From an uncultured Acidobacteriota bacterium (GTDB taxonomy: Bacteria > Acidobacteriota > UBA6911 > RPQK01 > JAPXNP01), in contig CAVRSV010000012.1 of assembly GCA_963723965.1 (NCBI GenBank), forward strand, positions 547,544 to 611,543: DNA of 64,000 bases. Reading direction: 5' to 3'. The translations under genes were made by a program, and so were the position numbers. A model generated the notes under the pieces. It was not told where the DNA came from, did not search any database, and saw only the letters and a program-made list of their open reading frames with translations. Positions 250 through 13,934 of the stretch are shown piece after piece. Numbering within the stretch: the first letter of the stretch is position 1; every line of letters starts with the position of its first letter.

Positions 250-598
250 GTCAAATCTCCCCACTGAATGATCTTCATTTGAATGTGCAATCCCGGCGGA
301 GCATACCATGGCCGCCCGGAGTTTTCCTGGGGGCGGTCGAGACTCATGGGGCCACGGGGTGGTTCGACGAAGGAGGCATCCCCGTCTTTGAAGCCGTCGC
401 CGGTGGGTCGCACAGCCTCTCCGCCGAGGGTCCGGCTCTCATCTACTCAGACTTCTGTCTGCACTGGACTTAGTGCACGAATTAAAGATAGGATCGATGA
501 TTGGGGGTCAGGATTTTCTTATGTTTTCTGTGCCATCTGAACCAATGACACGCTCCCGCCATCCAGAGAATTGAAGTGATCGATCGGAGGCTGCAACC

Positions 599-1111
599 AT
601 GAGACGGCAGTTCGTAATTCTGTTGTTTGCCGCCGTTCTTCTGACGGCTCAAGTCGTGGCCCTCGACCAGTCTGACGAGCCCCAATCGAAAAGCCCCAGC
701 GAGTCTCCGAAAGTCGAGACCCGTCTGCGGCTCGGGGGTCTCCATGTCGGCGTAGGCGTGCAACATTGGTCGGGCTATCCGTACCCTCTTTGGTACGGCG
801 CGTACGCCAGTCCCTGGTTCTTTGATCCCTTCTATGCCTATCCGGCTGCTTTTCCGGTCTATCGGGCCGGAGTCGACCGGGATCATTTTGGCCGGGTGAA
901 ACTGAAGAACCTGGCAGGCGATGCCCAAATCTTCATCGACGGCGGCCTGGCCGGGGTCGGCTCGGACCTCAAGTCCTTCTACCTCAGGCCGGGCGCCTAT
1001 TCTCTGTCCATTCAGAGGCCCGGATACGAATCCTTCACCAAGAAGCTCTATGTGCTATCCGGAAAGACCCTTGACATCGACGTCCCCGAAACAGGCGAGG
1101 TGAAGCCATGA
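599..1111 (+). CDS. Secreted protein with C-terminal PEGA-like domain
   Basis: The 170 aa ORF starts with a signal peptide (MRRQFVILLFAAVLLTAQVVA). The C-terminus (AGDAQIFIDGGLAGVGSDL...PGAYSLSIQRPGYESF...) resembles a PEGA domain. The stop overlaps the next gene's start (ATGA at 1108). Confidence 0.45.
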   Translation: MRRQFVILLFAAVLLTAQVVALDQSDEPQSKSPSESPKVETRLRLGGLHVGVGVQHWSGYPYPLWYGAYASPWFFDPFYAYPAAFPVYRAGVDRDHFGRVKLKNLAGDAQIFIDGGLAGVGSDLKSFYLRPGAYSLSIQRPGYESFTKKLYVLSGKTLDIDVPETGEVKP

Positions 1112-1812
1112 CCCGCAGACTTGGGCTCGAGAGGTTGCTCATCGTGGCACTGTTGGCCGGTCTTCCCGGCATCTGCTGGGGACAGAGCACAACCGCCGAT
1201 CCTCCGACGACGAACCCGGCCACGACGGCCGACTATGTGCTGACGGCCCGGCTCCTGAAACAGGCGGAAATCAGCCGTGATTTCGTGTCTGCCGTCAACC
1301 GTGGCCACCTGGTCGTCGAGGTCACCCTGGAGCCAACCGCCGGCGCCATCGAGGTTCGCCGGGACGACTTCCAACTCATGGTCTCCGGCGACAACAATCG
1401 GCTCGGTGCTGAGGAGCCCGCGACCGTCGCCGCCTACCTGCAGAAAACGGCCCCGGTCTATCGCGACGTCACCGTCACGCCGGAGGTTGGGGCAGTTTAT
1501 CGGACCGGGCGGCCCCAGCCCGATCCCACGTTCGATCCCAACTACCCGATCGACCGGGCATCGCGGCGTCTGACGGTTCGGACGGGTGCCGACATCCGGT
1601 TCGGAGACCAGACCGGCGGCCTGACCGATGAAGATCGCAAGGTCATGGAAACCGAACTGTCCGACAAGGGGTTGCCCGAGGGAAAGACGAACCGACAGGT
1701 CGTCGGGTACCTCTACTTCCGCGTCGACAACCCCGAGAAGATCACCCAGATCTCGCTCGACTATTCCCCCGCGGGAGGGACGGCGACCCAGATTCAACTT
1801 CGGGGAAAGTAG
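1108..1812 (+). CDS. Secreted hypothetical protein, co-transcribed with the PEGA protein
   Basis: The 234 aa ORF has a signal peptide ending in the lipobox-like motif LPGICWG. It has a 4-nt overlap with the upstream gene. No recognisable catalytic motif. Confidence 0.4.
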   Translation: MTRRLGLERLLIVALLAGLPGICWGQSTTADPPTTNPATTADYVLTARLLKQAEISRDFVSAVNRGHLVVEVTLEPTAGAIEVRRDDFQLMVSGDNNRLGAEEPATVAAYLQKTAPVYRDVTVTPEVGAVYRTGRPQPDPTFDPNYPIDRASRRLTVRTGADIRFGDQTGGLTDEDRKVMETELSDKGLPEGKTNRQVVGYLYFRVDNPEKITQISLDYSPAGGTATQIQLRGK

Positions 1813-1860
1813 AGCCGGAGGGAAGAGCCCGATCCCGCTCTGACACTCGGAACCCAAGAC

Positions 1861-1912
1861 TCCCGTCCTCCCGTTCTCCGCTCCTCCCGTTCTCCCGTTC
1901 TCTGGTGCATGC
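1861..1912. repeat. Polypyrimidine CTCCCGT(T/C)CTCC tandem motif array, convergent intergenic
   Basis: The sequence tcccgtcctcccgttctccgctcctcccgttctcccgttctctgg lies between two convergent genes. The same 20-mer (ctcccgtcctcccgttctcc) recurs in reverse orientation at about 55479-55506. Related copies occur at 9735-9775 and 9929-9955. Confidence 0.6.
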
Positions 1913-1931
1913 CGGTCCCCGCCTCGGGACA

Positions 1932-3416
1932 TTAGGCGACGATGCGGAACTTCGAGCGGTTCTCGCGGCAGATCTTTTCGATGACCTTCCGGCCCTGCAT
2001 GGCGGCCGGGGGCAGTCCTCCGCCCGGCTGGACCCATTGCCCGATCATGTGGAAGTGGGCCACCGAGGGAAGGGTCTGCCGCATCCTCACCCGAATCGAC
2101 CGGGTGGTCGGCAGCCATCCTTCGAACGATCCCAGCCAATTGCCGGTGTAGCGCTCGAAAGTCAGAGGAGTGGCCACATTCACCATTTCGACCTGTTCCG
2201 CGATCCCCGGGAAGCGACGGTCCAGAAAACCGATGAACTCTTCACCGACGGCCTTCTTCTCCGTCACGTAGCGCTCGGGGTCCTGCCCGATCTCCTTCCA
2301 GAGATCGTAGTCGCTCTGGAACATGCTGATCACGACCGACTTTCCCGCCGGGGACAGCGACGGGTCGTAGCAGAAGTGCCGCAGAAACACCCGGTCACCG
2401 TCGCCGCCCGGGATGGCGAGCGGCGGGTCCGCCCGGCAGATGACACTGTGGGGCTGGTCGCTCAGGTCCCGGGCGACGCCTACGGCGACATAGACCAGGG
2501 GCTGGAAGGGCTTCAAGGTGCGGTAGTGCTCGAGAACCTTGCCGTCCAGGTATTGCTCGCCCAACAGGTCGAAGAGGGTCGAGTGACCGTCCGCCGCGGA
2601 AATGACGTAGTCGGAGCGAAACTGCCTGCCGTCGGCCAGTTCGACCCCGATCGCTTTCCCTTCCTCGACGAGAATTCGCGCGACTCTGCTCTTGTACCGG
2701 ACCTCCCCTCCCAGGGACAGGTACTTCCTCTCGATCCGCCTGGCGAACTCCAGTGACCCTCCGAGCGGATACCCGGCAGCCCGGTTGTGCATCATGGCCA
2801 GCGTGTAATAGACCGCGAACATCGGGAAGTCGGGCAGGTCGAAGACGGCGGGGAAGTTCCGCCTCAGAAACGGTTCCTGGAAACGGGCGGCAAAATCCTG
2901 GATCGAAGTCCGCGTGGACGTCATGAAGGAAAGGATCAGTCGGGCCGTCGCCAGAGCCCGGGCCACACGCCCGGACAGCGAGGCGGTCTCATCGGCCAGT
3001 TGCTCGTCCATCCGGGCATAGGCCCGGACCCGGTTGGTGAATCTCCGGATCATCGACGCGTCCCTGGGACACAGCTCCAACAGGTGTTTTTCGAACCGGT
3101 CCACGTCCGTGTAGAAGACCAGCGTCTTCCCATCGGGATCTTCCACGCGGGTGAACTCGTCGTGATCGACCACAGGCACGCCCTCGATCGCACCCAGCTC
3201 CTTCCAATACCGGTGGAAGCTGTTCCGTGGGGAGGAGCCGCAGAGCCAGTGGATGCACCCGTCGACGGTGTAGCCGTTCCTCTCCCAGGAAGTGCAGAGC
3301 CCACCCGGTTTATCGTGGAGCTCGAAAACAGTGGTTTCGAAGCCGTTCATGCGGCCGTAGCAGGCAGCCGACAGACCGGCGATCCCCGCCCCGATGATCG
3401 CGATGCTCTTCGGCAT
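1932..3416 (-). CDS. FAD-dependent oxidoreductase of the phytoene desaturase (CrtI/CrtD-like) family
   Basis: The 494 aa ORF has the N-terminal Rossmann dinucleotide motif IAIIGAGIAGLSAA and a C-terminal GxWxxPGGG-type motif (IGQWVQPGGGLP) typical of CrtI-like amine-oxidase-fold enzymes. Confidence 0.7.
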   Translation of the reverse strand: MPKSIAIIGAGIAGLSAACYGRMNGFETTVFELHDKPGGLCTSWERNGYTVDGCIHWLCGSSPRNSFHRYWKELGAIEGVPVVDHDEFTRVEDPDGKTLVFYTDVDRFEKHLLELCPRDASMIRRFTNRVRAYARMDEQLADETASLSGRVARALATARLILSFMTSTRTSIQDFAARFQEPFLRRNFPAVFDLPDFPMFAVYYTLAMMHNRAAGYPLGGSLEFARRIERKYLSLGGEVRYKSRVARILVEEGKAIGVELADGRQFRSDYVISAADGHSTLFDLLGEQYLDGKVLEHYRTLKPFQPLVYVAVGVARDLSDQPHSVICRADPPLAIPGGDGDRVFLRHFCYDPSLSPAGKSVVISMFQSDYDLWKEIGQDPERYVTEKKAVGEEFIGFLDRRFPGIAEQVEMVNVATPLTFERYTGNWLGSFEGWLPTTRSIRVRMRQTLPSVAHFHMIGQWVQPGGGLPPAAMQGRKVIEKICRENRSKFRIVA

Positions 3417-3685
3417 AAACCCTCCCTTTGCAGGGGATCATAGCATTCCGGGAGGCCCCGCCTCATCAGTCCCAGGCCCTCCCTTGGCTGCGAAGTCCTA
3501 TCTGCGAGGACGTGTTGCAGCAACCTTCTCGAACTCCCCCGATGCTGCACAATATCTGTCGAGACTCGCTGAGCCGATCTCACGCCACGGCCGCTACGGT
3601 CTCCAAGAGCTCGGAACCCAGAGAAACCCGTTGCGTCCCTTGCGACCGCCCGTGAGACCCAGTCGCCGGAGGCGCCGCTTTGCGG

Positions 3686-3952
3686 TCAGTCAGCTCTTCC
3701 CTTACCAGCGTTGTGTCGAACCCAGGACGCGATCAGATGACCGAGCAGACCCATGAACGCAGCATAAACGAAAGTAGGGAGTAGCCAGCTCGTCAGGGTT
3801 TCGAGGAGAAACCACCAGTGGGTTCCCTCAGGACCGTGGAAGACGCCACTTGGGTTCTCCAGCCAATTCCACAGGGTCATGCCGATCGAGATCAGAGCGG
3901 ACACCAACACTCCAAACTTGAGGCCAAATCGGACGGACTTCATCGGGTTCAT
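3686..3952 (-). CDS. Small two-TM membrane protein (hypothetical)
   Basis: An internal ATG (MNPMKSVRFGLKFGVLVSALISIGMTLWNW...) gives an ~89 aa product with two hydrophobic helices. The start site is uncertain. Confidence 0.3.
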   Translation of the reverse strand: MNPMKSVRFGLKFGVLVSALISIGMTLWNWLENPSGVFHGPEGTHWWFLLETLTSWLLPTFVYAAFMGLLGHLIASWVRHNAGKGRAD

Positions 3953-4084
3953 GGCCAGACTATGATCGCACCCTTGTTCCGGGGATGAGAAGAGCTCGAG
4001 TGACGCCGAACGCTGGACGGTTTTCGCCGAGGTGTTCGATTCGGCGCGGCTCGGGCCCGCGTGGCTTAGCGATTCGCGGACAAG

Positions 4085-4171
4085 CGGGATCGGACTCTGC
4101 CCCACGACTGCCTGCACGTCCTGCCCGGCTCCGCCGGCTACGAGATGGACGCCGGCCTCTTCAAGAAATGA
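4085..4171 (+). pseudogene. Remnant (~35 codons) of a paralogue of the C-terminus of the beta-helix gene at 10173-11249
   Basis: In frame, 4085-4171 reads ...DRTLPHDCLHVLPGSAGYEMDAGLFKK*, against ...DQPLPHDYLQVLPGSAGYEMDAGLFKK* at 11163-11249. About 85% nucleotide identity continues for ~50 bp past the stop (to about 4215 versus about 11300). The frame is closed by a TAG ~35 codons upstream, so no intact gene exists here. Confidence 0.55.
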
Positions 4172-4241
4172 CCGTACCGTCCGCTCCCCGGCTCCGTGCC
4201 TGCCGTGGGGCGGGAATCCCGAATGAGTCGATTGGACTTGA

Positions 4242-4274
4242 AATTAGGAATAATCCTAATTAGGATAGTTCCTA
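4242..4274. promoter_or_regulatory. Two tandem TAGGA-N4-TCCTA inverted repeats (putative ArsR-family operator) overlapping the arsR-like start codon
   Basis: The sequence is aattaggaataatcctaattaggatagttcctATG. ArsR/SmtB repressors bind imperfect inverted repeats overlapping their own promoters. Confidence 0.5.
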
Positions 4275-4594
4275 TGAACTTGATCTTCAAAGCCCTGAGC
4301 CATCCGGCGCGGCGGCGGATCATCGCCATGCTGCAGAAGGGCCCACTCACTTCCGGTGAGATCGCGGCTGAGTTCGACATGGCGTGGCCTTCCGTCACCG
4401 GCCACCTGGCGGCGCTCAAAGAGGCGGACCTGGTCGAGACGGAGCGTCGCGGCAACACCGTACGCTATCGTCTCAACATCTCGGCCGCCGAGGAAGCAGT
4501 CGGCTTCCTGCTCGGCCTGATGCAGGCGGCAAGACCGGCGCGGCGGCCCGGCGAAACGCCTTCGAACAAACCCTTGAGGACTAAACCGGCATGA
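4274..4594 (+). CDS. ArsR/SmtB-family winged-helix transcriptional regulator (SdpR-like)
   Basis: The product is MNLIFKALSHPARRRIIAMLQKGPLTSGEIAAEFDMAWPSVTGHLAALKEADLV. This is the canonical ArsR HTH (ALSxPxRRxIL...GEIA...SQPxVSHHL-like). The ATG at 4274 was chosen over the upstream ORF start. Confidence 0.75.
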   Translation: MNLIFKALSHPARRRIIAMLQKGPLTSGEIAAEFDMAWPSVTGHLAALKEADLVETERRGNTVRYRLNISAAEEAVGFLLGLMQAARPARRPGETPSNKPLRTKPA

Positions 4595-5235
4595 CTGACA
4601 ACGAAAAGGGCGACTTCGATTTCCTGGAGAGAGCCGGCTTTGTACTGATGGCGCTCCAAATCGCCATTTTCGGCTACATGTGGGTGGCGGAAGGTCTCGA
4701 CCGAGCCTCGGACGGTTTTCCCATCTTTGTCGTGTGCACCGGAGTCTTCCTCGCGGGCCAGCGAAGGCTGGTCGTCAAGCCTCCCAATCGCGGTGCGGCG
4801 CGCTGGATCCTCGCCTCGCGCGCGGCGGTGCTGGCGTTCCTCACGCTCGGCACACTGGCAGTCGGTTTCCATCGCATCGTGCCCAGCACAGCCCCCGCGC
4901 CACAGTTTATACTCCGCGTCCTGTTCGCCCTGCTCTGGGTTGTCATCGCGCTCAAAGGGGCGGCCGTGGGCAAGCTGAAGCCGGGCAGCGCCATGGGCCT
5001 GTGCGTCTCCTGGACGAGACACAGCCGACTCGCCTGGGACCGGGCACATCGCACATTGGGGCGCATCTTGTTCTGGGGCGGGCTCATTGGATTGGCGACG
5101 AGTCTCATCGTCGCCCCGCTCACCTCGATGGCGATGTGGGCCGCCACCGTCGCCCTCGCCGTCGCGGCGGCGCTGATCGAAAGCTGGCGCACCTGGCGCG
5201 TCGATCCCGACCGTTCCAGCGGGCGCCCCGCTTGA
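4591..5235 (+). CDS. Six-TM membrane protein, SdpI/YhfL-like (partner of ArsR/SdpR-like regulator)
   Basis: The 214 aa ORF has six predicted hydrophobic helices. Its start overlaps the arsR-like stop (ATGA). The arrangement matches the SdpR-SdpI pair in Bacillus. Family assignment is by architecture only. Confidence 0.4.
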   Translation: MTDNEKGDFDFLERAGFVLMALQIAIFGYMWVAEGLDRASDGFPIFVVCTGVFLAGQRRLVVKPPNRGAARWILASRAAVLAFLTLGTLAVGFHRIVPSTAPAPQFILRVLFALLWVVIALKGAAVGKLKPGSAMGLCVSWTRHSRLAWDRAHRTLGRILFWGGLIGLATSLIVAPLTSMAMWAATVALAVAAALIESWRTWRVDPDRSSGRPA

Positions 5236-5395
5236 AGTCCAACGAAGGCACCCGTCCGAGCAAGACGGTCAGCAAATCGATGGGACCGAGAGAATCCAGA
5301 GGACGCCGTGGCGATCAACTGCGGGTGCCGCACGCGACCGGTGGGTGCATCGCCGTGCCGTGCGGCCGGTCCTTGTCGATTTCATCGACGGACCC

Positions 5396-6374
5396 TCAAT
5401 TCTTTCCACCACCGCTTCGGATAATGCTGTCGTCTTCGCTCGGCAGAACCCACATCTCCGAGAGGAGCCACTCCCCGGCATCGCGAACGATCACCCACGT
5501 CGCACGAGCATAGCGGACGGGCAGGCGTTGATCCTCGGTCTGCTCGACGGCTGCACCCGTCGCGGTGATGTTAATCAGGGCCACGCCCGGCGTGATCATC
5601 CGAATCTCGTCGATGATGAAGATAGCGCGATAGGGCCGGGGCTGTGAGAAGTAGGTGCGCCACCAGTTCCGGATGGCTTCTCGGCCGTGCACCAAAGGTA
5701 CATTGCGGATCATGATGTCCGCTTCATCTCTGTAGAGTCCACTGACGGCAGACGGATCGCGGCTGTTCCACGCATCTTCGTACGCCGCCACGAATGCACG
5801 GATCTGAGGGCTGAGGGCTTCTGCCGCTTCGACGGATGCGTTCAGGACGACACGGTCTTCCTCTGTGGGGAATCCCCGCATGGCCGTGATGAGCCAGTCA
5901 CCGCTGCGTCGTTGCAGCAACCAGGTCCCGCGAAACTTCCGCGCAGGCAACTCCTGACCTGTGGAATCGTGACCACCGGTGGTCGTTGCGACATTCACAA
6001 TCGCGACATTCCCGTCGATGAGCTTCACCGTACTCACGTCAAGCGTCAGCCCTCGGTCGGGCTCCTGCCTTTCGAAGTACTCCTTCCACCATTCCCGGAT
6101 CGCCTGTCGTCCGCGCGCCTCGGGCAGGTTCCCCATCATCGAAGTCCGCATCCTCGGTGAAGAATGCGGCAAGAGCCGACGAATCGTGCGTGTTCCATGC
6201 CGTCCGATATGCTTCGACACGTGCACGAATTCCCGCGGAGTCGTCGACCTCCTGCGCCCTTGCCGCCACAGGCAGCGCGGCAGCGAGCAGGATGGCGGCA
6301 AGGGTTCTCGCGGCTACCCCTGCCAGCCCTGCAACCGTGAGCGTCGAGAATGGGCCGTCGGGCTTTCCGTTCAT
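5396..6374 (-). CDS. Secreted protein with two tandem SnoaL-like/DUF4440 (NTF2-fold) domains, interrupted by a frameshift near 6140
   Basis: The ORF 6039..6407 supplies a signal peptide and the N-half of domain 1 (...AYRTAWNTHDSSALAAFFTEDADF). The ORF 5396..6301, in another frame, continues (MMGNLPEARGRQAIREWW...) and contains a second full repeat (AYEDAWNSRDPSAVSGLYRDEADIMIRNVPLVHGREAIRNWW). The frame switch maps to gacttcgatgatgggg (a G4 run). Confidence 0.55.
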
Positions 6375-6556
6375 TTTCTGGTGTCTCCTCCCGAGGTAAG
6401 GCGGCACTCATGAGAATCGAGAGCCCACGCTCGCATGGCGTCGACACCAAGGGTTCTCAGATGCGCCTGCCGCCTGGTCTTACTTCCAGTGACACGCCGC
6501 CGATGCCGCTTCAATTCTCTTCCGTCGTTTGGCTGGGTAATTCTTCACGAGCCGGT

Positions 6557-6679
6557 CAACCATTGCATCCCGTGGAGGCTGCACCCTGGAGATCAAGCGG
6601 TGCGGTGGAACAAGAGTGTCCGAGCTTTTCCGGGCACGGCGCGGGATTTTCTCTAGATTGTCGCGCCTATCTACGGGAA
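6557..6679. repeat. Copy L of a ~120 bp diverged repeat flanking the low-GC island
   Basis: Copy L is caaccattgcatcccgtggagg...ggagatcaagcggtgcgg...attttctct...tctacgggaa. Copy R1 (9384-9502) is caaccatcgcatcccgtgcc...ggagaattatagggtgcgg...aattctctgg...tctacgggaa. The two share a 19/20 head and an exact 10-mer tail, with about 65-70% identity overall. Confidence 0.55.
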
Positions 6680-6954
6680 CACGCAAGGGCCAGGATCCGT
6701 AACGAGGCGGTGGAGAGGCGAGTAGATGTGGATGCAGGGCGCACGACGAGAAAGCCCCCGGCAGGCGTACACCATCCGTGCTACGAGCAGCCCGGGCTGC
6801 ATGTTCGTCCGTGGCGAACCGAAAGCGGCAGCAAGGCGCCGCACTCCAGAGTGACTCCGTCGCAGACGATCCCGACGTCCTCGGCAAGGGAGAAAGGGAC
6901 ACTCTTCAGTGTGGAGGTTGGACCAAGCTTTCGAGGGTGACCGAGGACAGGACC

Positions 6955-7143
6955 TCATGAGGAAAACAGTGTCCCCAACTCTCCGTCTGCAGAAAGATCC
7001 TCTGCATGCTGCGCGGCCTCGCAGGCCGCACCCATCTGGACCAGATCGCCCTTAGCGTGTCTGACTAGCTCGTTGGCATCATCAAATCTTCTCTTGTACT
7101 CACCAATCTGTTTCTGGCGACTTGCGACGGTAGTCAGGCACAC
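6955..7143 (-). CDS. Small ORF (62 aa) at the left edge of the low-GC island; coding status doubtful
   Basis: It has the same orientation as the island genes and a charged, coiled-coil-like sequence. No motif was found. Confidence 0.15.
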   Translation of the reverse strand: MCLTTVASRQKQIGEYKRRFDDANELVRHAKGDLVQMGAACEAAQHAEDLSADGELGTLFSS

Positions 7144-7197
7144 TGCCCAGCGGGGCCTCGATGGTTTTGTTGAGGAGGGCTTGCGGTTCCCCTTGTG

Positions 7198-8713
7198 CTA
7201 GTGCCTGAACACAGGGAGCCTTCTCAAGTCCTTATAGGCGACACGATCAGTCTGTCTGTTGAACAGATCAACACTCCGTGCTGCCCGGATCCCTGTATAG
7301 AAACCGTAGTCGAGAATGAGTCCGAGGTACTTACGGCCCACGTCACCAATTGTGATCCCTTCGTTGATTACGTGCAGCAGGCGCAGATCTACGAGTGTAC
7401 GGACGCTCTCATATGTTGGATCTTCTGTCTTGATCTCAACGAGGAACGCGTTACCCCGATGCTGCTTGACGCAGAAATCCCTGATGCTTTCGATTAGGGC
7501 TTGTAGCGGATGGGCTCTTCCAGATGCATCGGCTTCAAGTTCGCGCAGCTTCGCGTTGATGGTCTCAGATGCCGCAACGTTCACATTCGAAACCGACACT
7601 CGCTTCCGGTTAGCAAGCGTTGCCTTGGTGATTGCCTGGGAGAACAAATTCAGCGCATCCCGCGGCACTCCAGCAGCAACCCACGTTAATCTTGGAACAA
7701 CGTCTGCACTCGTACAGAGTCGCCGAACAGAAGGGAGACCGCAGTAGATCGCATGCGAATCAAGAATGGCCTCGATGTGCTGGGTGGCCTTGTCTGGCAT
7801 CGTCAGGTTGTAGTCGAGGGGAAGGATCTGCGCATCGTGTGGTATTTCCAGCCCCTGCCTGGTGCTGGATCGAATGTTCTAGTCAATGTCTCAATAGCCG
7901 ACAGCTTGAGGAAGAGTCGGTTCCCCCGGGATACGGCGTATAGCACGTCCAGCAGACGAGGCTGCAGAGACTCCGCTATGACGTGGAAATCGTCAAGGAA
8001 GATGAACAGCTCTTGGCCCGTCGATGCGAAATGGGACAGCAGACGGCGCAAGGCGGGAAGTTCCCTGCGTATCAATCCCTCGGTCAGATCGGGTCTCGTC
8101 AGTGTCGCCAGCGACGATGTGAATGCGGTATTGCAGCCAAAGAAAGAAGAGACTTGTTTCACGATGTCGGAGAGCACGTCCGCGATGACCGCGTCATCGT
8201 CACGCCGCGCGTAGACCTGCATATGGATCCAGACAGACGGCCGCGACTCCCTGTTGCGCGTGTGGAGAGCATAGAGCAAGAGGGTTGACTTCCCTGCCCC
8301 CCGTCGTCCGAAGACCACATGGTTGGACGCGGCCGTCACTTGTTCCTCCGCGCCGGCTACAGACTGTGTGTAGCGCGTAAGAAAATCCTCTTGGAAGCTG
8401 TACCGGTTGATGTTGAGGCTTTCGGATATAGTCTTCAGCAAGAGCTTACCTTCGGGCCCCCGCAGGACGTTCTCTCCTGGCTTCTTGACAAGTGTAACGA
8501 GCGGGGGGTCACGATAGGCCCCCCCGACTGAGGCACGAACCTGTTCCAACAGAGAAAATAGTCGATCGCTCGGATTCGCGATTTGTAGGACCAGGACGTC
8601 GCTCCCTTCCCTTTCCTAATCTCATAGGGCAGGCCCGCGAGTCCCGATTTCCGCTCAAACCGCTTGCGGACTTCGTCAAGTACGGCGTGGTCTCTAGTCA
8701 TTGATGGTCTCAC
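7198..8713 (-). CDS. Orc1/Cdc6-type AAA+ P-loop ATPase (~500 aa), split into three ORFs by two frameshifts at G runs
   Basis: ORFs 8435..8713, 7803..8549 and 7198..7800 tile one gene. Its N-terminus is an ATG coupled by ATGA to the upstream HEPN-like gene. Motifs are Walker A VVFGRRGAGKSTLLLYAL, Walker B LFIFLDDFH and a sensor-2/arginine-finger-like AAGVPRDALNLF, followed by a helical C-terminal domain. Frame switches coincide with a 7-G run (minus-strand sense; 8519-8525) and with gcagggg at about 7840. The local GC is about 50% against about 67% for the window. Confidence 0.55.
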
Positions 8714-9204
8714 ACATTCAGTCCTCGATCGTTGAGATACGTTGCCACATCGTCGAGGAAATCACGAACCAATTCAGCTGCCACCCGGGATCCCAGAGCC
8801 AAATCGCCAGCCGAGGAGAGGTGGTCATAATCGCAGGTGTTTCGATCTTCCCGCAGGATCGCGAGTTGGTTTATGTACCTGGATCGACTCGGAAAGTCGT
8901 TAGGAAGGTTCTCGAATTTCTGATGGTCTTTGACGTCTGTGGAATACTCTCCGTTGACATAGAGACGTAGGGCTCGCGCAGCATTGTATCCGGCGTAGTA
9001 CAACCGTGAAACTTTCTGTCTCCAGTTCGGAGCCGACTGTCGCGCGGCGAATCGGTAATGGGTGCGCGCTAGAACCATGAGAGCACGAGTATTGCCCTCT
9101 ATCTCCGATTCGATGAGGCCCAGAGCCGTAGCATCCAAGAGGCCAGACAGGTTGTCCTTCACTTTGCGGGGGTTTCCAAGATTTAGCAAGTGAGGAGTCT
9201 TCAT
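8710..9204 (-). CDS. Small (164 aa) hypothetical protein with HEPN-like R-x6-H motif, first gene of the island operon
   Basis: Candidate HEPN signature LAILREDRNTCDYDH (R-X6-H) sits in a helical ~160 aa protein. The stop TGA overlaps the ATG of the ATPase. The HEPN assignment rests on this motif alone and is tentative. Confidence 0.4.
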   Translation of the reverse strand: MKTPHLLNLGNPRKVKDNLSGLLDATALGLIESEIEGNTRALMVLARTHYRFAARQSAPNWRQKVSRLYYAGYNAARALRLYVNGEYSTDVKDHQKFENLPNDFPSRSRYINQLAILREDRNTCDYDHLSSAGDLALGSRVAAELVRDFLDDVATYLNDRGLNV

Positions 9205-9383
9205 CCCACTTCCATCTATCCGCGATTGGTTTCCTGGCGATTGAAGGCCTCAACCTCCCCAGTGTCGCGCGCCCAACTTCTGATCAAGTGGTTTCCAGAT
9301 AGTGCCACCACCTCGTGCTGCTCCTGATAACGGGTTGCGGGTGATTCCTCATGTGCGTTCTATCATCAGGCATCTGGATTCGC

Positions 9384-9502
9384 CAACCATCGCATCCCGT
9401 GCCAGATGCTCCATGGAGAATTATAGGGTGCGGGCTGACAAAAGAGGGGAAATTCTCTGGTCATTGAGTCGGATCTTCCTCCGTGTGTCGGGTCTACGGG
9501 AA
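9384..9502. repeat. Copy R1 of the ~120 bp island-flanking repeat
   Basis: See copy L. R1 lies ~180 bp upstream of the HEPN-like gene start (minus strand). Confidence 0.55.
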
Positions 9503-9778
9503 GATGCAGGCCGCTGGATCCCGCCGCAGTGGTCGAGGCAGCGCCTTTCGGACGCACATGGCGTGGCGACTCGCTGGCGCTCGCGTTCTGATGGCCTGCC
9601 CGAACCACCGCGCAGACAGAACGTGAGCGCCACCGAGCGTCACTCCCCGACCTCACGACAGGCTCACCTGGTCCACTGCGGCAAGGCCGGGGCGCATCTC
9701 CCCTTCTCAGTCGCGGTACCCGAAAATCTCGCACTCCCGCGTCCCGTTCTCCCTCCCTCCGTCCCGCTGCCCCGCTCG

Positions 9779-9900
9779 ACGACCATCGCGTCCCGTGGAG
9801 AATTCTGTTGGTAGATTATAGTGTGCGGCCTGATTGAATGGGCAAGTTTCTCCGGTCGTGACGGAGGATTCTCATCAACTTGTCGGGCCTTCCCGCGGCA
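9779..9900. repeat. Copy R2 (more diverged) of the island-flanking repeat
   Basis: The sequence gaccatcgcgtcccgtggagaattctgttggtagattatagtgtgcggcctga...gtttctccggtc...ttgtcgggcct aligns to R1 with gaps. It is followed by the CTCCCGTTCTCC motif. Confidence 0.45.
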
Positions 9901-10172
9901 GAATTGCGCCCACTCTCCTGCCGGCATCTTGTTCTCCCGTTCTCCCGCGTCCCTCACTCGCGCTCTGATTCCCAACCCGGCTCGCACCCCTTGTTCCTCT
10001 ACGCAGTTCAGCGCTTTACTTACTCGTTTCTGCCGAAGTAGACTCCTGTTGGCCAAAAGCCGATGTCTGTCCAACTGCCGCGATCGCCATGGACCGAGGC
10101 CCGGGCCGGGAATCGCGCCACTGGGGTATTTTCGCCGACCGCAGGGTCGGCACTGAACGAAGCGAGGTCCCG

Positions 10173-11249
10173 ATGAACATGAGGTCTCTCGTGACTCTCA
10201 CCTGCCTCACCTGCCTCACCTGCCTGGCCGCCGCCCCGGGCGGAGCGCCCCAGGGCAGCCCCGACGCCTCCGGATCCACCGCAGCGATCTACGTCGACTG
10301 CCGGTCAGGGGCGGACACCAACCCTGGCACCAGGGAGTCCCCTGTCCAGACCGTGGCCAGAGCCGCCGCGATCCTTCGCAGCCCGGACAACGCGATCTAC
10401 GTCATGCGGCTGAATCCAGGCATCCACGTCCTGCCACGACACGTGGAGCTCGCGACAGAGAAGAACATGGCCGGAAAGCGAATCGTGGTCGAGGCCTCCG
10501 TGCTGCCCGATGACTCCAAGTGGACGCCCGAATCCATGCCGATCGTGATCAGCAGCGCCGAGCTCGGCGACCTGGCGGCCGATTCGCCCAGCCTCGTCGT
10601 CGGGTTTCTGGTCAACGAGAGCCACGTGACGATCCGCGGCATCAAGTTCCACGGCTACCCGCGCCCCAACTCACGCTATTTCCCCATCGGTCGCTTCAAT
10701 GTGGCCAAGACCGATCTCCGTGTCGAGCAGTGCCTGTTCCTCGGAGACCCGAATGCCGCCCACCTTCAGGTCGGTGTCATCGGCCACGGCGACGGAATCC
10801 AGGTCGACCACTGTGTCTTCTACAACGTGAGGAACGCCGTCGTGTTCTGGCAAAGCAATCGCCCAAAGAGCGGCAACTCCCTCACCCACTGCATCATCTC
10901 GGGTGCTCGGCAGAGCGCGGTGTGGACGGCGTGGCCGGACCAGGACTTCACGTTCAAGAACAACATCGTGACCGGATGCAAATTCGTGTGGATCAAGAAC
11001 GGGGACAACACGTCCGAGTATTCGATCGAGGACAGCGTCGTCGTCGGCAACGAGTTCGAAATGGGCGTCTCCCGTAACGACACGGTGGCCCCCGAGGCAT
11101 TCGGGCTCCGTGAGAGCGGTGTCGTCAAGTCGGGGAAGGTCGCGCTGCGCCTGGTCGACCAGCTCGATCAGCCTCTGCCGCACGACTACCTGCAGGTCTT
11201 GCCCGGCTCCGCCGGCTACGAGATGGACGCCGGCCTCTTCAAGAAATGA
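10173..11249 (+). CDS. Secreted right-handed parallel beta-helix (pectate-lyase-fold) repeat protein
   Basis: ATG at 10173 gives MNMRSLVTLTCLTCLTCLAAAPGG, a signal peptide encoded by a cacctgcct x3 repeat. The body has repeated beta-helix rungs (IRGIKFHGY, VDHCVFYNV, NNIVTGCKFVW, SVVVGNEF). The last ~90 bp of this gene are duplicated as a remnant at 4085-4171. Confidence 0.6.
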   Translation: MNMRSLVTLTCLTCLTCLAAAPGGAPQGSPDASGSTAAIYVDCRSGADTNPGTRESPVQTVARAAAILRSPDNAIYVMRLNPGIHVLPRHVELATEKNMAGKRIVVEASVLPDDSKWTPESMPIVISSAELGDLAADSPSLVVGFLVNESHVTIRGIKFHGYPRPNSRYFPIGRFNVAKTDLRVEQCLFLGDPNAAHLQVGVIGHGDGIQVDHCVFYNVRNAVVFWQSNRPKSGNSLTHCIISGARQSAVWTAWPDQDFTFKNNIVTGCKFVWIKNGDNTSEYSIEDSVVVGNEFEMGVSRNDTVAPEAFGLRESGVVKSGKVALRLVDQLDQPLPHDYLQVLPGSAGYEMDAGLFKK

Positions 11250-11398
11250 CGGGATCGCCCGCTCCCCTGTCGACATGCCTGCCCTGGGGCGCGAATCCCG
11301 AATCCACGATTCCGAACCTCGAATGTCCGTGAAAGCGGTCGGCACGGCGCCCTTCGTTCGCCTGCGCCACGGGCCGGCCGGACTCCAGATACAGACCC

Positions 11399-11427
11399 AA
11401 AAAGGCCCGGCAGATGCCAGGCCTTTT
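11399..11427. terminator. Bidirectional intrinsic terminator hairpin flanked by A5/T5 runs
   Basis: The sequence aaaaaggcccggcaGATgccaggcctttttgg has a 10-bp stem (1 mismatch) and a 3-nt loop, with A-run and T-run flanks. It sits between the beta-helix gene (+) and tRNA-Leu (-). Confidence 0.6.
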
Positions 11428-11444
11428 TGGGTTCTCGAACTAAT

Positions 11445-11532
11445 TGGTGCCGGAGGCGGGATTTGAACCCGCACACCCTTTCGGGCGCCACCCCCTCAAG
11501 ATGGTGTGTCTGCCAAGTTCCACCACTCCGGC
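11445..11532 (-). tRNA. tRNA-Leu (anticodon GAG), 88 nt with long variable arm and encoded CCA
   Basis: The reverse-complement is GCCGGAG-TG-GTGG-AACTTGGCAGA-CAC-A-CCATC-TTGAGGG-GGTGG-CGCCCGAAAGGGTGT-GCGGG-TTCAAAT-CCCGC-CTCCGGC-A-CCA. It has a 7-bp acceptor stem, a GTTCAAATC T-loop, and an anticodon loop TT-GAG-GG with a 5-bp stem (one G.U). Confidence 0.8.
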
Positions 11533-11541
11533 ACACAAGGC

Positions 11542-11967
11542 CTACTGGCCGGAACCGCCGCCCTGGGGAGGATTCGCCTGCTGCGATCCGCCGCCCGATG
11601 CCGGCGGCTGAGCCGGGGTCTGGGCCGGCGCTTGAGCCGGTGCCTCAGTCGGCGGCTGAGCCGGCGTCGACGGCTGTTCGGCCGGCGTCGTCTGCTGGGT
11701 CGCGGCCGGCGCCTGCTCCATGATGCTCGATTCTTCCGTGCGTGAATAGAAGATCGCCAGCCCCAGCGAAGTCACCATGAACACGACTGCTGCAGCTGCC
11801 GTCGCCTTGGTCAGAACGGTCGTCGCACTGCGCACCCCGAAGGCGGTCTGGCTCGACGTTCCGCCAAAGGCGGACGCGAGGTCGCCGGCCTTGCCGGACT
11901 GCAACAGCACGACCAGGATCAGCACCAGAGCCGAAAGCACATGCAGGATCGTCAACACAATGAACAT
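11542..11967 (-). CDS. secG: Preprotein translocase subunit SecG
   Basis: The N-terminus is MFIVLTILHVLSALVLILVVLLQSGKAGDLASAFGG. This is the SecG signature (LLQ.GKG..L...FGG), followed by a second TM helix and a Pro/Ala/Gln-rich tail. secG followed by tRNA-Leu mirrors E. coli secG-leuU. Confidence 0.8.
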   Translation of the reverse strand: MFIVLTILHVLSALVLILVVLLQSGKAGDLASAFGGTSSQTAFGVRSATTVLTKATAAAAVVFMVTSLGLAIFYSRTEESSIMEQAPAATQQTTPAEQPSTPAQPPTEAPAQAPAQTPAQPPASGGGSQQANPPQGGGSGQ

Positions 11968-11971
11968 GTTT

Positions 11972-12724
11972 CTAATACTTCACGATTTGCGCAAAGGACT
12001 CGGCATCCAGACTTGCTCCGCCGACCAGTGCGCCGTCAATATCGGGTTGTGCCATCAGTTCCGCGATGTTGCCCGGCTTGACGCTTCCACCATAGAGGAT
12101 GCGCAACCCTTCGGCGAGCGCCTCCGAATAGGTGTCCCGAAGCCAGCCGCGAATCATGGCGTGAACTTCTTCGGCGACTTCGGGAGTCGCCGTACGACCA
12201 GTACCGATTGCCCACACTGGTTCGTAAGCGATGATGATACGAGATACCTCATCCTCTGTCAATTCAGCGAGACCGCGCCGCAACTGGCCCAGAATCACGT
12301 CTTCGACCCGGTCGGCCTCGCGCTGGTCGAGCGTTTCGCCGACGCAGAGGATGGGTGTCAGAGAGGTCCCGAGAACCTTGGACAGCTTGCGACCAATCGA
12401 CTCGTCGTCCTCCAGGAAATACTGCCGGCGTTCCGAGTGTCCGAGGATCACGTATTGACAACTGCAGTCCTGCAGCATGCCGACCGAGATCTCTCCCGTG
12501 TAAGCGCCTTCGTCTTCCCAGTGCACGTTTTGCGCACCCAGCTGGATCGTCGAACCCTCCAGCGCCTTCGCCGCGGCCGCCAGGCCGGTGAAGGTGGGGC
12601 AAACCACCACCTCCACCGCCTGATGACCGTCTACCTTCTGGCGAAGCCCCTGGATGGTACGGACCACCTCGGACTGGGTCTTGTACATCTTCCAGTTTCC
12701 AGCAATCACAGGCTTCCGCGCCAT
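11972..12724 (-). CDS. tpiA: Triose-phosphate isomerase
   Basis: The product begins MARKPVIAGNWKMYKT (IAGNWKM motif) and contains the active-site region AYEPVWAIGTG. It is 250 aa. Confidence 0.9.
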   Translation of the reverse strand: MARKPVIAGNWKMYKTQSEVVRTIQGLRQKVDGHQAVEVVVCPTFTGLAAAAKALEGSTIQLGAQNVHWEDEGAYTGEISVGMLQDCSCQYVILGHSERRQYFLEDDESIGRKLSKVLGTSLTPILCVGETLDQREADRVEDVILGQLRRGLAELTEDEVSRIIIAYEPVWAIGTGRTATPEVAEEVHAMIRGWLRDTYSEALAEGLRILYGGSVKPGNIAELMAQPDIDGALVGGASLDAESFAQIVKY

Positions 12725-12734
12725 TACTCCACCT

Positions 12735-13934
12735 TTACTTGTCGGTCAGGACCGCGATACCGGGAAGCTGCTTGCCCGAGAGGAACTCGAGCGAAGCACC
12801 CCCACCCGTTGAGATGTGCGAGATCTTGTCGGCGACGCCCGCCTTCTTGACGGCCGAGACAGAGTCGCCGCCGCCCACGAGGCTGTACGCGCCGCTGGCC
12901 GCCACGGCTTCGGCGATGCCCAGGGTCCCCTTGGCAAACTGCTCGATTTCGAACACGCCGAGGGGTCCGTTCCAGATCACGGTCCGGGCTCCCACGAGCT
13001 TGGACTTGAACTCCGCAATGGTCCGGGGACCAATGTCCAGGCCCATCCAGTCTCCGGGAATCGCATCCGCGCCGACGACGCGGGATTCCACTCCGACTTC
13101 GAGGCGAGGCGCCGCGACAATGTCGACGGGAAGAGCGAAATCGACGCCTTTCCTGCGGGCCTCGTCGAGAAAGCTCTGAGCCACATCCAGCTTGTCCGCT
13201 TCGAGCAGGGACTTGCCGATCTCGCGACCCTGGGCCTTGAAAAAGGTGAACGCCATTCCGCCGCCCAGCAGAATCCGATCCGCCAGCTTGAGGAAATTCT
13301 CGATCACCTCGATCTTGTCGGAGACTTTGGCGCCGCCGAAGATCGCCACCACCGGCTTCTCGGCCCCGAACAGAACGCGCGAGAGCGCTTCCAGTTCTCG
13401 GTCGATCAGCAGCCCCGCCGCGCCCTTCCCCAGCACCTGCGGAACTCCGACGGTGGAGGCATGGGCCCGGTGAGCCGTGCCGAAAGCGTCATTGACGTAC
13501 TCGTCGGCCAGGCTCGCGAGCTTCCCGGCGAACTCGGGGTCATTCTTGGTCTCGCCGTTGTAGAAGCGGACATTCTCGAGGACCAGGACCTGTCCCCGCC
13601 CGAGTGCGTCGACCGCCGCGGAGACCTTGTCTCCGACGCAGTCGTCCACGAAGCCCACCTCCTCTCCGAGGAGCTGCCCGAGACGACGGGCTACCGGCGC
13701 CAGCGAGAACTCCGGCTTTCGTTCACCCTTGGGCCGGCCCAGATGGGACGCCAGGATGACTCGGCCCCCCTTCTCCTTGACCAGCCGGATGGTGGGCAGA
13801 GCGGCCTGGATCCGAGTGTCGTCTCCCACTTCGCCGTCACTGACGGGAACGTTGAAGTCGACCCGGATGAAGACCCGCTTGCCGTCGAGATCCAGATCGC
13901 GCACCGACTTCTTGGGTCTCATTTTCTCAACCAT
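12735..13934 (-). CDS. pgk: Phosphoglycerate kinase
   Basis: The 399 aa product has the N-terminal substrate motif RVDFNVP, as well as GGGASLEFLSGKQLPG (GGGAS.E.L.GK). Confidence 0.9.
   Translation of the reverse strand: MVEKMRPKKSVRDLDLDGKRVFIRVDFNVPVSDGEVGDDTRIQAALPTIRLVKEKGGRVILASHLGRPKGERKPEFSLAPVARRLGQLLGEEVGFVDDCVGDKVSAAVDALGRGQVLVLENVRFYNGETKNDPEFAGKLASLADEYVNDAFGTAHRAHASTVGVPQVLGKGAAGLLIDRELEALSRVLFGAEKPVVAIFGGAKVSDKIEVIENFLKLADRILLGGGMAFTFFKAQGREIGKSLLEADKLDVAQSFLDEARRKGVDFALPVDIVAAPRLEVGVESRVVGADAIPGDWMGLDIGPRTIAEFKSKLVGARTVIWNGPLGVFEIEQFAKGTLGIAEAVAASGAYSLVGGGDSVSAVKKAGVADKISHISTGGGASLEFLSGKQLPGIAVLTDK

Follow-up and report, generated by a model that had tools for sequence, protein, structure and literature searches.

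A low-GC cassette pairing a HEPN-fold protein with an ORC/Cdc6-like AAA+ ATPase: probably an unnamed anti-phage or toxin-type module

Two genes on the minus strand make up a cassette at positions 7157-9255 of the window (the whole 64,000-nucleotide stretch of DNA that was analysed): an intact gene for a small HEPN-fold protein and, immediately following it, a gene for an AAA+ ATPase whose reading frame is broken twice. In the order of transcription, the features are:

7157-9255, minus strand: cassette, with ends set by blastn homology with an 88%-identical contig (L050)
8710-9204, minus strand: intact gene for the HEPN-fold protein (164 aa), of the AF0298-like HEPN-T / PF05168 branch
8917-8931, minus strand: KDHQK, site of the "alternative" catalytic His of AF0298-like HEPN domains
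8821-8856, minus strand: LREDRNTCDYDH, region of the HEPN R-x6-H motif (R121...H128) at the end of helix 3
8701-8727, minus strand: gene junction, with an SD-like GAGGA at 8722-8726, GTG at 8713 overlapping the TGA stop at 8712-8710, and an alternative ATG at 8701
7198-8713, minus strand: gene for the ORC/Cdc6-STAND-like AAA+ ATPase (~501 aa), broken by two 1-nt deletions
8615-8616, minus strand: frameshift 1, one G missing (ATTAGG^GAAAGG), ...PYEIR continuing as EREGSDVL... in the next frame
8283-8309, minus strand: Walker A, GRRGAGKST, with G132, R133, R134, G135, A136, G137, K138 and S139 invariant
7983-8009, minus strand: Walker B, LFIFLDDFH (hhhhDD), with D237, D238 and H240 invariant
7865-7866, minus strand: frameshift 2, one G missing (CCAG^GCACC), ...TRTFDP continuing as (GT)RQGLEIPH... 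in the next frame
7651-7674, minus strand: AGVPRDAL, sensor-2 / GxP-type lid motif, with A344, G345, V346, P347, R348, D349 and A350 invariant
C-terminal end of the ATPase: conserved tail of ~40 aa, LDYGFYTGIRAARSVDLFN...YKDLRKLPVF

Homology with the L050 contig begins ~50 nt before the HEPN start and ends ~40 nt past the ATPase stop. The region so delimited has 55.1% GC, compared with 63.0% in both flanks and in the window as a whole, and its span coincides with the GC minimum of the window, being the lowest of 619 sliding 2.1 kb windows at about 4 SD under the mean. An earlier sequence-only reading of this DNA had described the pair as lying in a compositional islet, which it does, but the contrast given there (47-55% versus 67% GC) was exaggerated; 200-nt windows within the cassette range from 51.5% to 61.5% (mean 55% versus 63%). 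At third codon positions, GC3 is 0.58 in the HEPN gene and 0.82 in pgk. In agreement with that reading, no transposase, integrase, methylase or restriction gene adjoins the pair in the window. Neither an RNA antitoxin-like repeat array nor an Rfam element was found in a search near the cassette, and a scan for promoters and terminators gave nothing above shuffled background.

The small protein is encoded without interruption, as had been claimed for this helical ORF with an R-x6-H motif, and has an extension of ~24 aa at its N terminus. In HEPN domains, helix 3 ends in the motif R-x4-6-H, whose R is followed by a polar residue (Anantharaman et al. 2013, PMC3710099); in the AF0298-like domains, an alternative His is conserved in the insert between helices 2 and 3 (PMC3710099). 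In the window protein, which has the four-helix up-and-down HEPN fold, the motif reads RNTCDYDH, which puts Tyr at R+5 and His at R+7, N122 follows R121, and the alternative His is present as H94. R121, N122, D125, Y126, D127 and H128, as well as D93-H94, are invariant in 31 sequences; a distant Paraburkholderia relative keeps the D-H pair (H94) and has N in place of H128. Judged from these residues, R121, N122, H128 and the alternative H94 appear to form a constellation like the metal-independent RNase sites of HEPN domains. The HEPN fold that had been suggested for this ORF was found, and the ORF is conserved.

The HEPN identity was obtained from structure, a PDB profile match and intermediate sequences, not from direct family scans: the 164 aa protein has no Pfam match even at E<=1, and the NCBIfam and PADLOC scans were also empty. 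The PF05168 cut-off of 22 is passed by distant family members (P0327, 25.0; P0361, 28.3; the protein of contig L051, 23.9), and the L051 protein aligns with the family profile at an hhalign probability of 99.1%. Since the window protein itself has no match and distant members pass the cut-off, the PF05168/HEPN membership of the window protein rests on transitive homology. Its closest structural relatives include the HEPN toxins of MNT systems (5yep, 7ae2 and 8xdj).

At the junction of the two genes, the overlap of stop and start previously placed at 8710-8713 was confirmed, but the minus strand reads GTGA there and not ATGA. ATGA is the commonest junction elsewhere in the family (26/43 loci), in which a 4-nt start/stop overlap occurs at 31 of 43 loci, usually with GGAG ~8 nt upstream. 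Translation of the ATPase may begin at GTG 8713 or at ATG 8701; the latter, an in-frame codon 8 nt past the HEPN stop that agrees with the start of the closest homologues, seems the more likely.

The ATPase consists of an N-terminal alpha/beta domain of ~100 aa, an AAA+ core, a lid, a winged helix and the conserved tail. The three motifs reported for it earlier are all present, and GRRGAGKS, FLDDFH and AGVPRDA, corresponding to Walker A, Walker B and a GxPR-type sensor 2, show no variation across 26-33 homologues. The AGVPRDAL segment is the part that matches PF24389, the Sll1717 family and TIGR02928 (orc1/cdc6). With its frame repaired, the window ATPase scores 37.5 bits against PF24389 (ORC-CDC6-like; cut-off 27) and the homologue P0121 scores 39.1 bits, the matches covering only short stretches of the 571-position profile. 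The AAA+ core, lid and C-terminal winged helix are structurally nearest to Cdc6/Orc1, and the best matches in structure comparison were SSO1545, Cdc6/Orc1 and CED-4, ahead of TnsC and MuB; a PDB sequence search with the ATPase profile returned P-loop noise only. The Orc1/Cdc6 part of the proposed assignment is supported by both the PF24389 score and the structural matches. The protein is not a STAND ATPase in the strict sense (NB-ARC/NACHT/AVAST type), as its winged helix is followed only by a short tail that lacks repeats, and the fused effector which that class also demands is here a separate gene; nSTAND Pfam models matched it at E 0.01-0.09 only.

Although the ~500 aa ATPase had been presented as one gene, in the window it spans three reading frames, being split by two single-G deletions. 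The sites were placed by comparison with intact homologues and with contig L049, which is 98.5% identical, comes from another sample and has the G at both of them; a placement of frameshift 1 in the G7 run near 8519-8525 was ruled out, since intact homologues contradict residues 30-62 of such a repair. Because the two deletions break the frame, the window copy is either mis-assembled or very recently inactivated. Were both frameshifts real, the ATPase would be a pseudogene, the cassette would be dead here, and the HEPN protein, if still expressed, would be an orphan. This is conceivable but somewhat doubtful. The three frames themselves speak for it, as do decayed copies at other loci, short-read assemblies included (L093-098, L109, L113 and L129). 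However, when the two Gs are restored, the protein departs from the consensus at none of the 96 columns that are >=90% conserved, whereas for other family members the median is 2 such departures; the 98.5%-identical contig, as noted, has both Gs; a TolC-like OEP gene at 57792-59244 of the window also looks frameshift-split; and the related records are long-read metagenome assemblies, which often contain single-base deletions. Taken together, the evidence favours assembly error or very recent mutation.

Linkage of the two genes elsewhere, which the sequence-only reading had wanted checked, holds whichever of them is used for retrieval: the HEPN gene is immediately followed by the ATPase gene at 42 of 44 loci in GTDB genomes from >10 phyla, and the HEPN gene lies directly upstream at 63 of 71 loci retrieved independently with the ATPase, the exceptions being decayed copies. 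No third conserved gene stands beside the pair among the 44 genome loci, and no HEPN-ATPase fusion was seen among the best 150 HEPN-profile matches or among 479 family matches. The pair is a strict two-gene unit. Its members have also diverged in parallel, their pairwise-identity matrices being correlated at r=0.84, a value that none of 999 Mantel permutations attained. The family is rare, accounting for 65 clusters at 50% identity (E<=1e-30) in a set of 1.84 billion representatives, with carriers in Acidobacteriota, Verrucomicrobiota, Planctomycetota, Cyanobacteriota, Pseudomonadota and other phyla. Candidate cultured carriers of an intact pair are Tunturiibacter psychrotolerans X4BP1 (NZ_CP132941, about 4.267 Mb), Halomonas sp. 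ML-15, Rhodoblastus acidophilus DSM 142, Caballeronia sordidicola LMG 22029 and Rhizobium sp. Root564 (KQZ97362.1 and the gene downstream of it), and a phage-borne copy lies in IMGVR_UViG_3300048928_000352. The module is AT-richer than its flanks at 40 of 41 loci, with GC 11.8 points lower on average. The cassette is self-contained and has spread horizontally.

Most immediate neighbours of the pair are housekeeping genes, and defence-island enrichment among them was not seen. On two viral contigs, the pair lies in the prophage immunity region: between integrase/excisionase genes and a CI repressor gene, followed by CII and primase-helicase genes (L053), and ~4 kb from a CI-like repressor gene (L052). 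On a Paraburkholderia plasmid, a distant HEPN and ATPase pair adjoins SIR2 and ATPase genes and PIN genes. Scattered neighbours at other loci include PIN, Fic, HipA, MmeI, a C5-methylase and an IS; the only IS observed is an IS605 TnpB insertion that wrecks the HEPN gene at one locus.

From this context we infer a defence or abortive-infection role, and a conflict module that serves abortive infection or phage defence is the most likely reading of the pair, with a probability of about 0.55. In such a module, the ATPase would act as sensor and switch, driven by nucleotide, with the HEPN protein as the effector that cleaves RNA and the two joined in a complex. Binding of a phage-derived cue via the winged helix, the N-terminal domain or the tail would trigger ATP-dependent assembly, which would join HEPN subunits as an active dimer; RNA would then be cut and the infection aborted. 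A narrower version, which we advance tentatively by analogy, is an unnamed, phylum-spanning abortive-infection system in which an ORC/Cdc6-type switch would, like its initiator relatives, recognise a replication or DNA intermediate of the phage through its winged helix or tail, with ATP-dependent assembly then licensing the separate AF0298-type HEPN protein to cut RNA. Several observations count against a conflict module: the neighbours in other genomes, mostly housekeeping genes, form no consistent defence island; neither protein matches a PADLOC v2 model or a named NCBIfam anti-phage family; a relative was found on only 1 of 72,556 plasmids and in 0 of 50,697 GenBank phage records; no fusion of the two proteins turned up that would prove their physical cooperation; H128 is lost in the most distant relatives; and the window copy is frameshifted twice. 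The catalytic status of AF0298-type HEPN domains has, moreover, been debated and uncertain since 2013. The sequence-only reading had named three findings that would speak against its defence-candidate interpretation, namely an ORF lacking conservation or the HEPN fold, a transposition helper with decayed partners, and a pair unlinked elsewhere; each was looked for, none emerged, and the interpretation is supported.

The pair could also be an addiction-type toxin-antitoxin system, with the HEPN protein as a constitutive RNase toxin and the ATPase as an antitoxin that acts by ATP-dependent binding or modification, so that the outcome would be post-segregational killing and not phage sensing; the ATPase would then replace the MNT of HepT/MntA or the ParA/Soj ATPase of MAE_18760 dyads. 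A compact, tightly coupled two-gene operon, inserted alone among housekeeping genes and patchily distributed, suits this explanation, as does the structural nearness of the small protein to MNT-system HEPN toxins, and a dyad of HEPN with a ParA-type ATPase has been proposed as a TA system (Anantharaman et al. 2013, PMC3710099). We nevertheless consider it unlikely. The would-be antitoxin is three times the size of the toxin, is equally conserved (mean pairwise identity across the family 45% for the ATPase and 44% for the HEPN protein) and has a full AAA+ catalytic set, and a switch therefore fits better than a labile antitoxin. The toxin gene would come first in the order, and plasmids nearly lack relatives. 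In addition, an intact HEPN gene accompanies a disrupted ATPase gene in this window and at three other loci (L007, L021 and L045), which should be lethal if the ATPase were the sole brake, although some of these are long-read assemblies whose indels may be errors.

A role outside conflict, in housekeeping or element maintenance, is less probable still. Here the ATPase would bind DNA as an initiator or regulator, for instance in the replication or transcription of an integrated element, and the HEPN protein would be a non-catalytic partner that binds a nucleotide or ligand. The top structural matches, ORC/Cdc6 and SSO1545-type ATPases, are indeed DNA-binding initiators or regulators, a HEPN domain that is attached to a nucleotidyltransferase may bind substrate without being catalytic (PMC3710099), and the module sits in the lysogeny-control region of two phages. 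Yet by far most loci lack further element genes that the pair could serve, the invariant polar and charged residues of the HEPN motif argue for catalysis, and the sporadic distribution and strongly deviant GC are unlike those of a housekeeping function. That the pair is a transposon remnant, with the ATPase as a target-selection helper of the TniB/TnsC/IstB/MuB type whose transposase partners have decayed, is so improbable as to be effectively refuted: no conserved transposase or resolvase stands beside the pair at the 44 genome loci or the metagenome loci, let alone in its operon, the sole IS is the insertion that destroyed a HEPN gene, transposition ATPases are outscored by Cdc6, SSO1545 and CED-4 in structure, and the conserved partner is a HEPN protein.

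The pair is thus probably an unnamed anti-phage or toxin-type module. If it is a working one, it adds a compact two-protein design, in which an ORC/Cdc6-like switch is combined with a separate HEPN effector, from phyla that E. coli-centred discovery screens have barely sampled, and it would give an experimental handle on AF0298-type HEPN domains of uncertain catalytic status. Should the abortive-infection switch proposed above be correct, the pair would provide both the first functional read-out for an "alternative histidine" HEPN active site and a minimal split version of STAND/Avs-type immunity. Its small size, strict pairing and candidate catalytic residues (K138 and D237/D238 in the ATPase; H94, R121 and H128 in the HEPN protein) make it directly testable. 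The weight of the finding is limited, in that the family is rare, control of a HEPN RNase by an NTPase is a familiar idea and the window copy may not function; the pair is a further candidate among two-gene systems assembled from familiar domains.

The earlier statement that the gene order of the pair matches no familiar defence system agrees with the family scans. In PADLOC-DB v2.0.0, the HEPN protein matches no family and neither protein significantly matches any system model, the best match of the ATPase being PtuA (E 0.031, 11.5 bits) over 23 residues of the P-loop only. In NCBIfam, the HEPN protein is unmatched and the ATPase has partial matches below all cut-offs (score/cut-off: NF047389 (Sll1717), 41.8/75; NF053860 (DS41_1), 17.9/370; TIGR02928, 16.9/181). 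A HEPN and ATPase dyad of this kind is not described in the literature covered (the HEPN census, BREX/BR, Dnd, TRADD-N, DefensePredictor, the archaeal defence survey and fused MNT-HEPN), and literature searches for "Sll1717" and "PF24389" found nothing useful.

Among HEPN proteins, the nearest comparison is with the AF0298-like HEPN-T group (PF05168; PDB 2hsb, 1ufb and 1wol; sacsin HEPN, 3o10). The window protein falls below the PF05168 threshold, adds the N-terminal extension and the invariant His at R+7, and has an AAA+ ATPase and not a minimal nucleotidyltransferase as its partner. In the type VII toxin-antitoxin system HepT/MntA, the motif is Rx4HxY, with the AMPylated tyrosine at R+7, whereas the window family has RNxxDYDH; the HEPN gene comes first in the window family, and an MNT gene is absent from every pair locus, the ATPase being the sole conserved neighbour (44 loci). 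With a winged-helix AAA+ protein of 500 aa as the partner, neutralisation of the AMPylation type is not expected.

Combinations of HEPN with an NTPase are known from other conflict systems, such as PrrC/RloC (ABC ATPase-HEPN), STAND-HEPN fusions, the MAE_18760 dyad of HEPN and ParA/Soj, and Ava_2192/HmaC, a HEPN-DUF499 AAA+ protein of BREX-related type 1 systems. In contrast to these, the window proteins are separate and translationally coupled, have no methyltransferase or helicase partner, and include an ATPase without DUF499, an ABC signature or a repeat-type sensor domain. In the BREX-related type 1 / Hma systems, genes for an N6-methyltransferase and a helicase-nuclease neighbour that of the DUF499 ATPase (PMC12839542); no such neighbours are conserved beside the pair and its ATPase has no DUF499 Pfam match.

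Compared with ORC/Cdc6 and the PF01637 "archaeal ATPase" proteins (SSO1545, 2fna; PAB2304, 2qen), the window ATPase adds the ~100 aa N-terminal domain and the ~40 aa tail, is bacterial, sporadic and of low GC, and has an obligate HEPN partner; its sequence similarity to PF01637 and TIGR02928 is far under the thresholds. Septu PtuAB, PARIS AriAB, Gabija GajAB and DefensePredictor DS-41 likewise combine an NTPase with a small nuclease-type effector in horizontally mobile cassettes, but their homology with the window pair is limited to the P-loop, and the effector of the present cassette is a HEPN protein and not an HNH or Toprim protein.

The cassette (7157-9255, minus strand) consists of a small intact gene for a putative HEPN protein, as first read from the sequence, and a downstream ATPase reading spread over three frames (A, B and C). 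Features of the window are as follows:

9204..8710, minus strand: HEPN gene, intact ORF of 164 aa
From GTG 8713 or ATG 8701, minus strand: ATPase frame A
Minus strand: ATPase frame B, containing Walker A and Walker B
To TAG at 7198-7200, minus strand: ATPase frame C, containing GVPRDA
8615/8616, minus strand: frameshift 1, single-G deletion (ATTAGG^GAAAGG)
7865/7866, minus strand: frameshift 2, single-G deletion (CCAG^GCACC)
4196-4594: ArsR-family HTH regulator, overlapping the start of the membrane protein gene
4591-5235: 214 aa multi-pass membrane protein
11395-11432 and 11445-11532, tRNA on minus strand: hairpin and tRNA-Leu(GAG)

In a 500-nt sliding profile of the window, GC was 0.53-0.58 at about 7000-9500 compared with 0.60-0.65 on either side. 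The cassette has 55.1% GC, whereas both flanks and the whole window have 63.0%, and it is the GC minimum among all 619 sliding 2.1-kb windows; GC3 is 0.58 in the HEPN gene versus 0.82 in pgk. The low-GC islet of the sequence-only reading thus exists, but its figures (47-55% against 67%) were overstated. Homology with contig L050, which is 88% identical to the window, stops within ~50 nt of the two genes, giving a cassette size of 2.1 kb.

A direct repeat of ~150 nt (88% and 82% identity; 4079-4224 and 11157-11303) brackets a 7.1-kb segment that holds the ArsR/membrane-protein pair, a SnoaL-like gene, the HEPN-ATPase cassette and a beta-helix protein gene, and no integrase. The right copy comprises the 3' end of the beta-helix gene (10089-11249) and a further ~55 nt, which makes the left one a vestige of that gene end or of a paralogous one (...LPGSAGYEMDAGLFKK-stop); a past duplication or insertion could lie behind the repeat. 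The ArsR/membrane-protein pair is arranged like SdpR/SdpI, and an AT-rich palindrome (TAGGAATAATCCTAATTAGGATAGTTCCTA, 4245-4274) at the 5' end of this locus (4196-5235) may be an operator. The tRNA-Leu(GAG) gene lies directly downstream of secG-tpiA-pgk (11542-13934) and is followed by the hairpin (18-nt arms, 94% complementary; ACCCAAAAAGGCCCGGCA / TGCCAGGCCTTTTTGGGT), probably the operon terminator.

At E<=1e-3, 128 homologues of the 164 aa protein were found, nearly all 160-170 aa long. Sixteen residues are invariant in a 31-sequence alignment (W61, R62, Q63, S66, R67, Y69, Y70, D93, H94, R118, R121, N122, D125, Y126, D127 and H128). No direct match was found in Pfam, NCBIfam or PADLOC, and a profile search of PDB sequences returned a sole match, the 'HEPN domain-containing protein' 9xbd/9xbc (E 0.02), with SRxYYA and RNxxDYD in register. 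The AlphaFold2 model (pLDDT 94.6) had HEPN domains as its top seven Foldseek matches. Pfam PF05168 is passed by distant family members and by a protein from a Paraburkholderia plasmid, which PGAP already names 'HEPN domain-containing' and which matches the family profile with an hhalign probability of 99.1%. The profile match, the model and these relatives agree with one another and with the HEPN fold first suspected from the sequence, and the protein is assigned to the HEPN domains. In the AF0298-like HEPN-T branch, the Rx4-6H His is frequently absent, and the active site may be completed by another conserved His that sits in an insert between helices 2 and 3 (Anantharaman et al. 2013, PMC3710099). 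The family belongs to exactly this branch. It carries H128 (R-x6-H) as well as the D93-H94 of the insert, and the distant Paraburkholderia relative keeps only D93-H94.

With both missing Gs restored, the ATPase (~501 aa) passes Pfam PF24389 'ORC-CDC6-like' (37.5 bits, cut-off 27) and scores just under the AAA_16 cut-off; in NCBIfam, the Sll1717 P-loop ATPases and orc1/cdc6 were matched in part and below threshold. The AF2 model of P0121 (86% identical; pLDDT 88.1) comprises an N-terminal alpha/beta domain of ~100 aa, the AAA+ core, a helical lid, a winged helix and a C-terminal tail of low model confidence, yet highly conserved. Few parts of the family are as conserved as these last ~40 residues (7201-7314; LDYGFYTGIRAARSVDLFN...YKDLRRLPVFRH), yet their pLDDT is 53-62, which suggests a disordered interaction motif.

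The Walker A, Walker B and GVPRDA motifs of the ~500 aa ATPase are present as first read, but not in an uninterrupted ORF. The deletion sites were placed by alignment to intact ~500 aa homologues and to contig L049 (98.5% identity over 3.3 kb), in which both Gs are present but which carries many further indels of its own. At the junction, 8713-8710 reads GTGA rather than the ATGA reported earlier, and ATG 8701, 8 nt past the HEPN stop, matches the start of the closest homologues. At none of the 96 columns with >=90% conservation among ~110 homologues does the repaired protein depart from the consensus (median for other members, 2 deviations). Two abutting minus-strand ORFs in different frames (58270-59244 and 57792-58367), with one OEP repeat each, look like one TolC-like outer-membrane efflux gene split by a frameshift, suggesting single-base indels elsewhere in the assembly too. 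Since, in addition, the related records are long-read metagenome assemblies, an assembly error or very recent mutation is the likelier cause of the ATPase frameshifts. The copy in the window is possibly inactive.

A HEPN-motif scan of one genome per GTDB species yielded 44 loci in Verrucomicrobiota, Hydrogenedentota, Acidobacteriota, Gemmatimonadota, Planctomycetota, Cyanobacteriota, Nitrospirota, Omnitrophota, a Bacillota MAG and Alpha-, Beta- and Gammaproteobacteria. In 42 of them the next gene downstream, in the same orientation, is the ATPase, the exceptions being a contig end and a truncated remnant, and clustering of all neighbouring ORFs revealed no third conserved gene. Conversely, a search by ATPase motifs yielded 80 metagenome and 2 viral loci, 71 with room upstream, and the HEPN gene immediately precedes the ATPase in 63 of these; the linkage expected from the first reading is thus found from either gene. 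The remaining copies are decayed (six near-identical truncated and frameshifted, one IS605 TnpB insertion, one rearrangement). In L109 (21-1148) the place of the HEPN gene, immediately before an intact ATPase, is taken by an IS605-type TnpB gene; in L093-L098 (six near-identical peat or soil contigs, ~3700-5250) unrelated sequence replaces the entire HEPN gene and the first ~87 ATPase codons, the rest being frameshifted. Both show ways in which the cassette decays. A 4-nt overlap of stop and start occurs in 31/43 loci (ATGA 26, GTGA 4, TTGA 1), usually with GGAG ~8 nt upstream. The two proteins diverge at equal rates, and their pairwise-identity matrices are correlated (r=0.84; 0/999 Mantel permutations as high). 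A search of 1.84 billion representatives gave 479 matches, the best 150 of which include no HEPN-ATPase fusion; with 65 clusters at E<=1e-30, the family is a small one. The two genes form a single unit.

In 40/41 loci the module has a higher AT content than its flanks (mean difference 11.8 points). Since in other genomes it mostly adjoins unrelated housekeeping genes (and in a minority of cases PIN, Fic, HipA, MmeI, C5-methylase, IS200 and Mutator transposase genes), it is usually a solitary insertion and not a defence-island member. Plasmid and GenBank phage collections contain hardly any relatives. The single plasmid copy (L051; Paraburkholderia aromaticivorans NZ_CP051517, 5117-12098), a distant HEPN and ATP-binding protein pair with ~30% identity to the family, adjoins genes for a SIR2-family protein, a second ATP-binding protein, a KTSC-domain protein and a PIN-domain protein, with ImuB/DnaE2-type error-prone polymerase genes on the other side; this locus looks like a small defence island. 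Both IMG/VR matches lie in temperate-phage contexts. In L052 the pair is ~4 kb from a CI-like repressor; in L053 (IMGVR_UViG_3300048928_000352, 494-11865) it lies at 5465-7515, within the lysogeny module, in the order integrase, excisionase, two ORFs, HEPN, ATPase, CI repressor, CII and primase-helicase. The two ORFs (4089-4781 and 4851-5267) had no PHROG match. The immunity region is the classical site of prophage-borne exclusion genes, such as lambda rexAB beside cI.

The best-supported reading, to which we give a probability of about 0.55, is a two-component conflict module; the folds, motifs, coupling, co-evolution, horizontal spread and prophage context are established, and from them we infer catalysis, complex formation, a trigger and a phenotype. 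The AAA+ protein would act as an ATP-dependent sensor and switch and the HEPN protein as RNase effector. Since HEPN RNases act as dimers with composite sites (PMC3710099; PMC13000451), ATPase assembly could draw HEPN subunits together. The main rival, an addiction-type toxin-antitoxin pair in which the ATPase is the antitoxin, is considerably less probable: the ATPase is large, conserved and fully equipped for catalysis, the gene order argues against it, plasmid copies are rare, and some loci have an intact HEPN gene but a disrupted ATPase. A DNA-binding role outside conflict is unlikely, and a decayed transposon helper is effectively refuted.

The closest known kinds to this conflict-module candidate are AF0298-type HEPN domains, HepT/MntA systems, the NTPase-HEPN combinations (PrrC/RloC, STAND-HEPN fusions, the MAE_18760 and ParA dyad, and HEPN-DUF499 of BREX-related systems; PMC12839542) and ORC/Cdc6-type ATPases, already known as mainstays of conflict systems (PMC10853773). 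No name for the dyad was found in the searched model libraries or searchable literature. By their defining tests, it falls outside each named system compared, and it is a testable candidate whose concept is not surprising.
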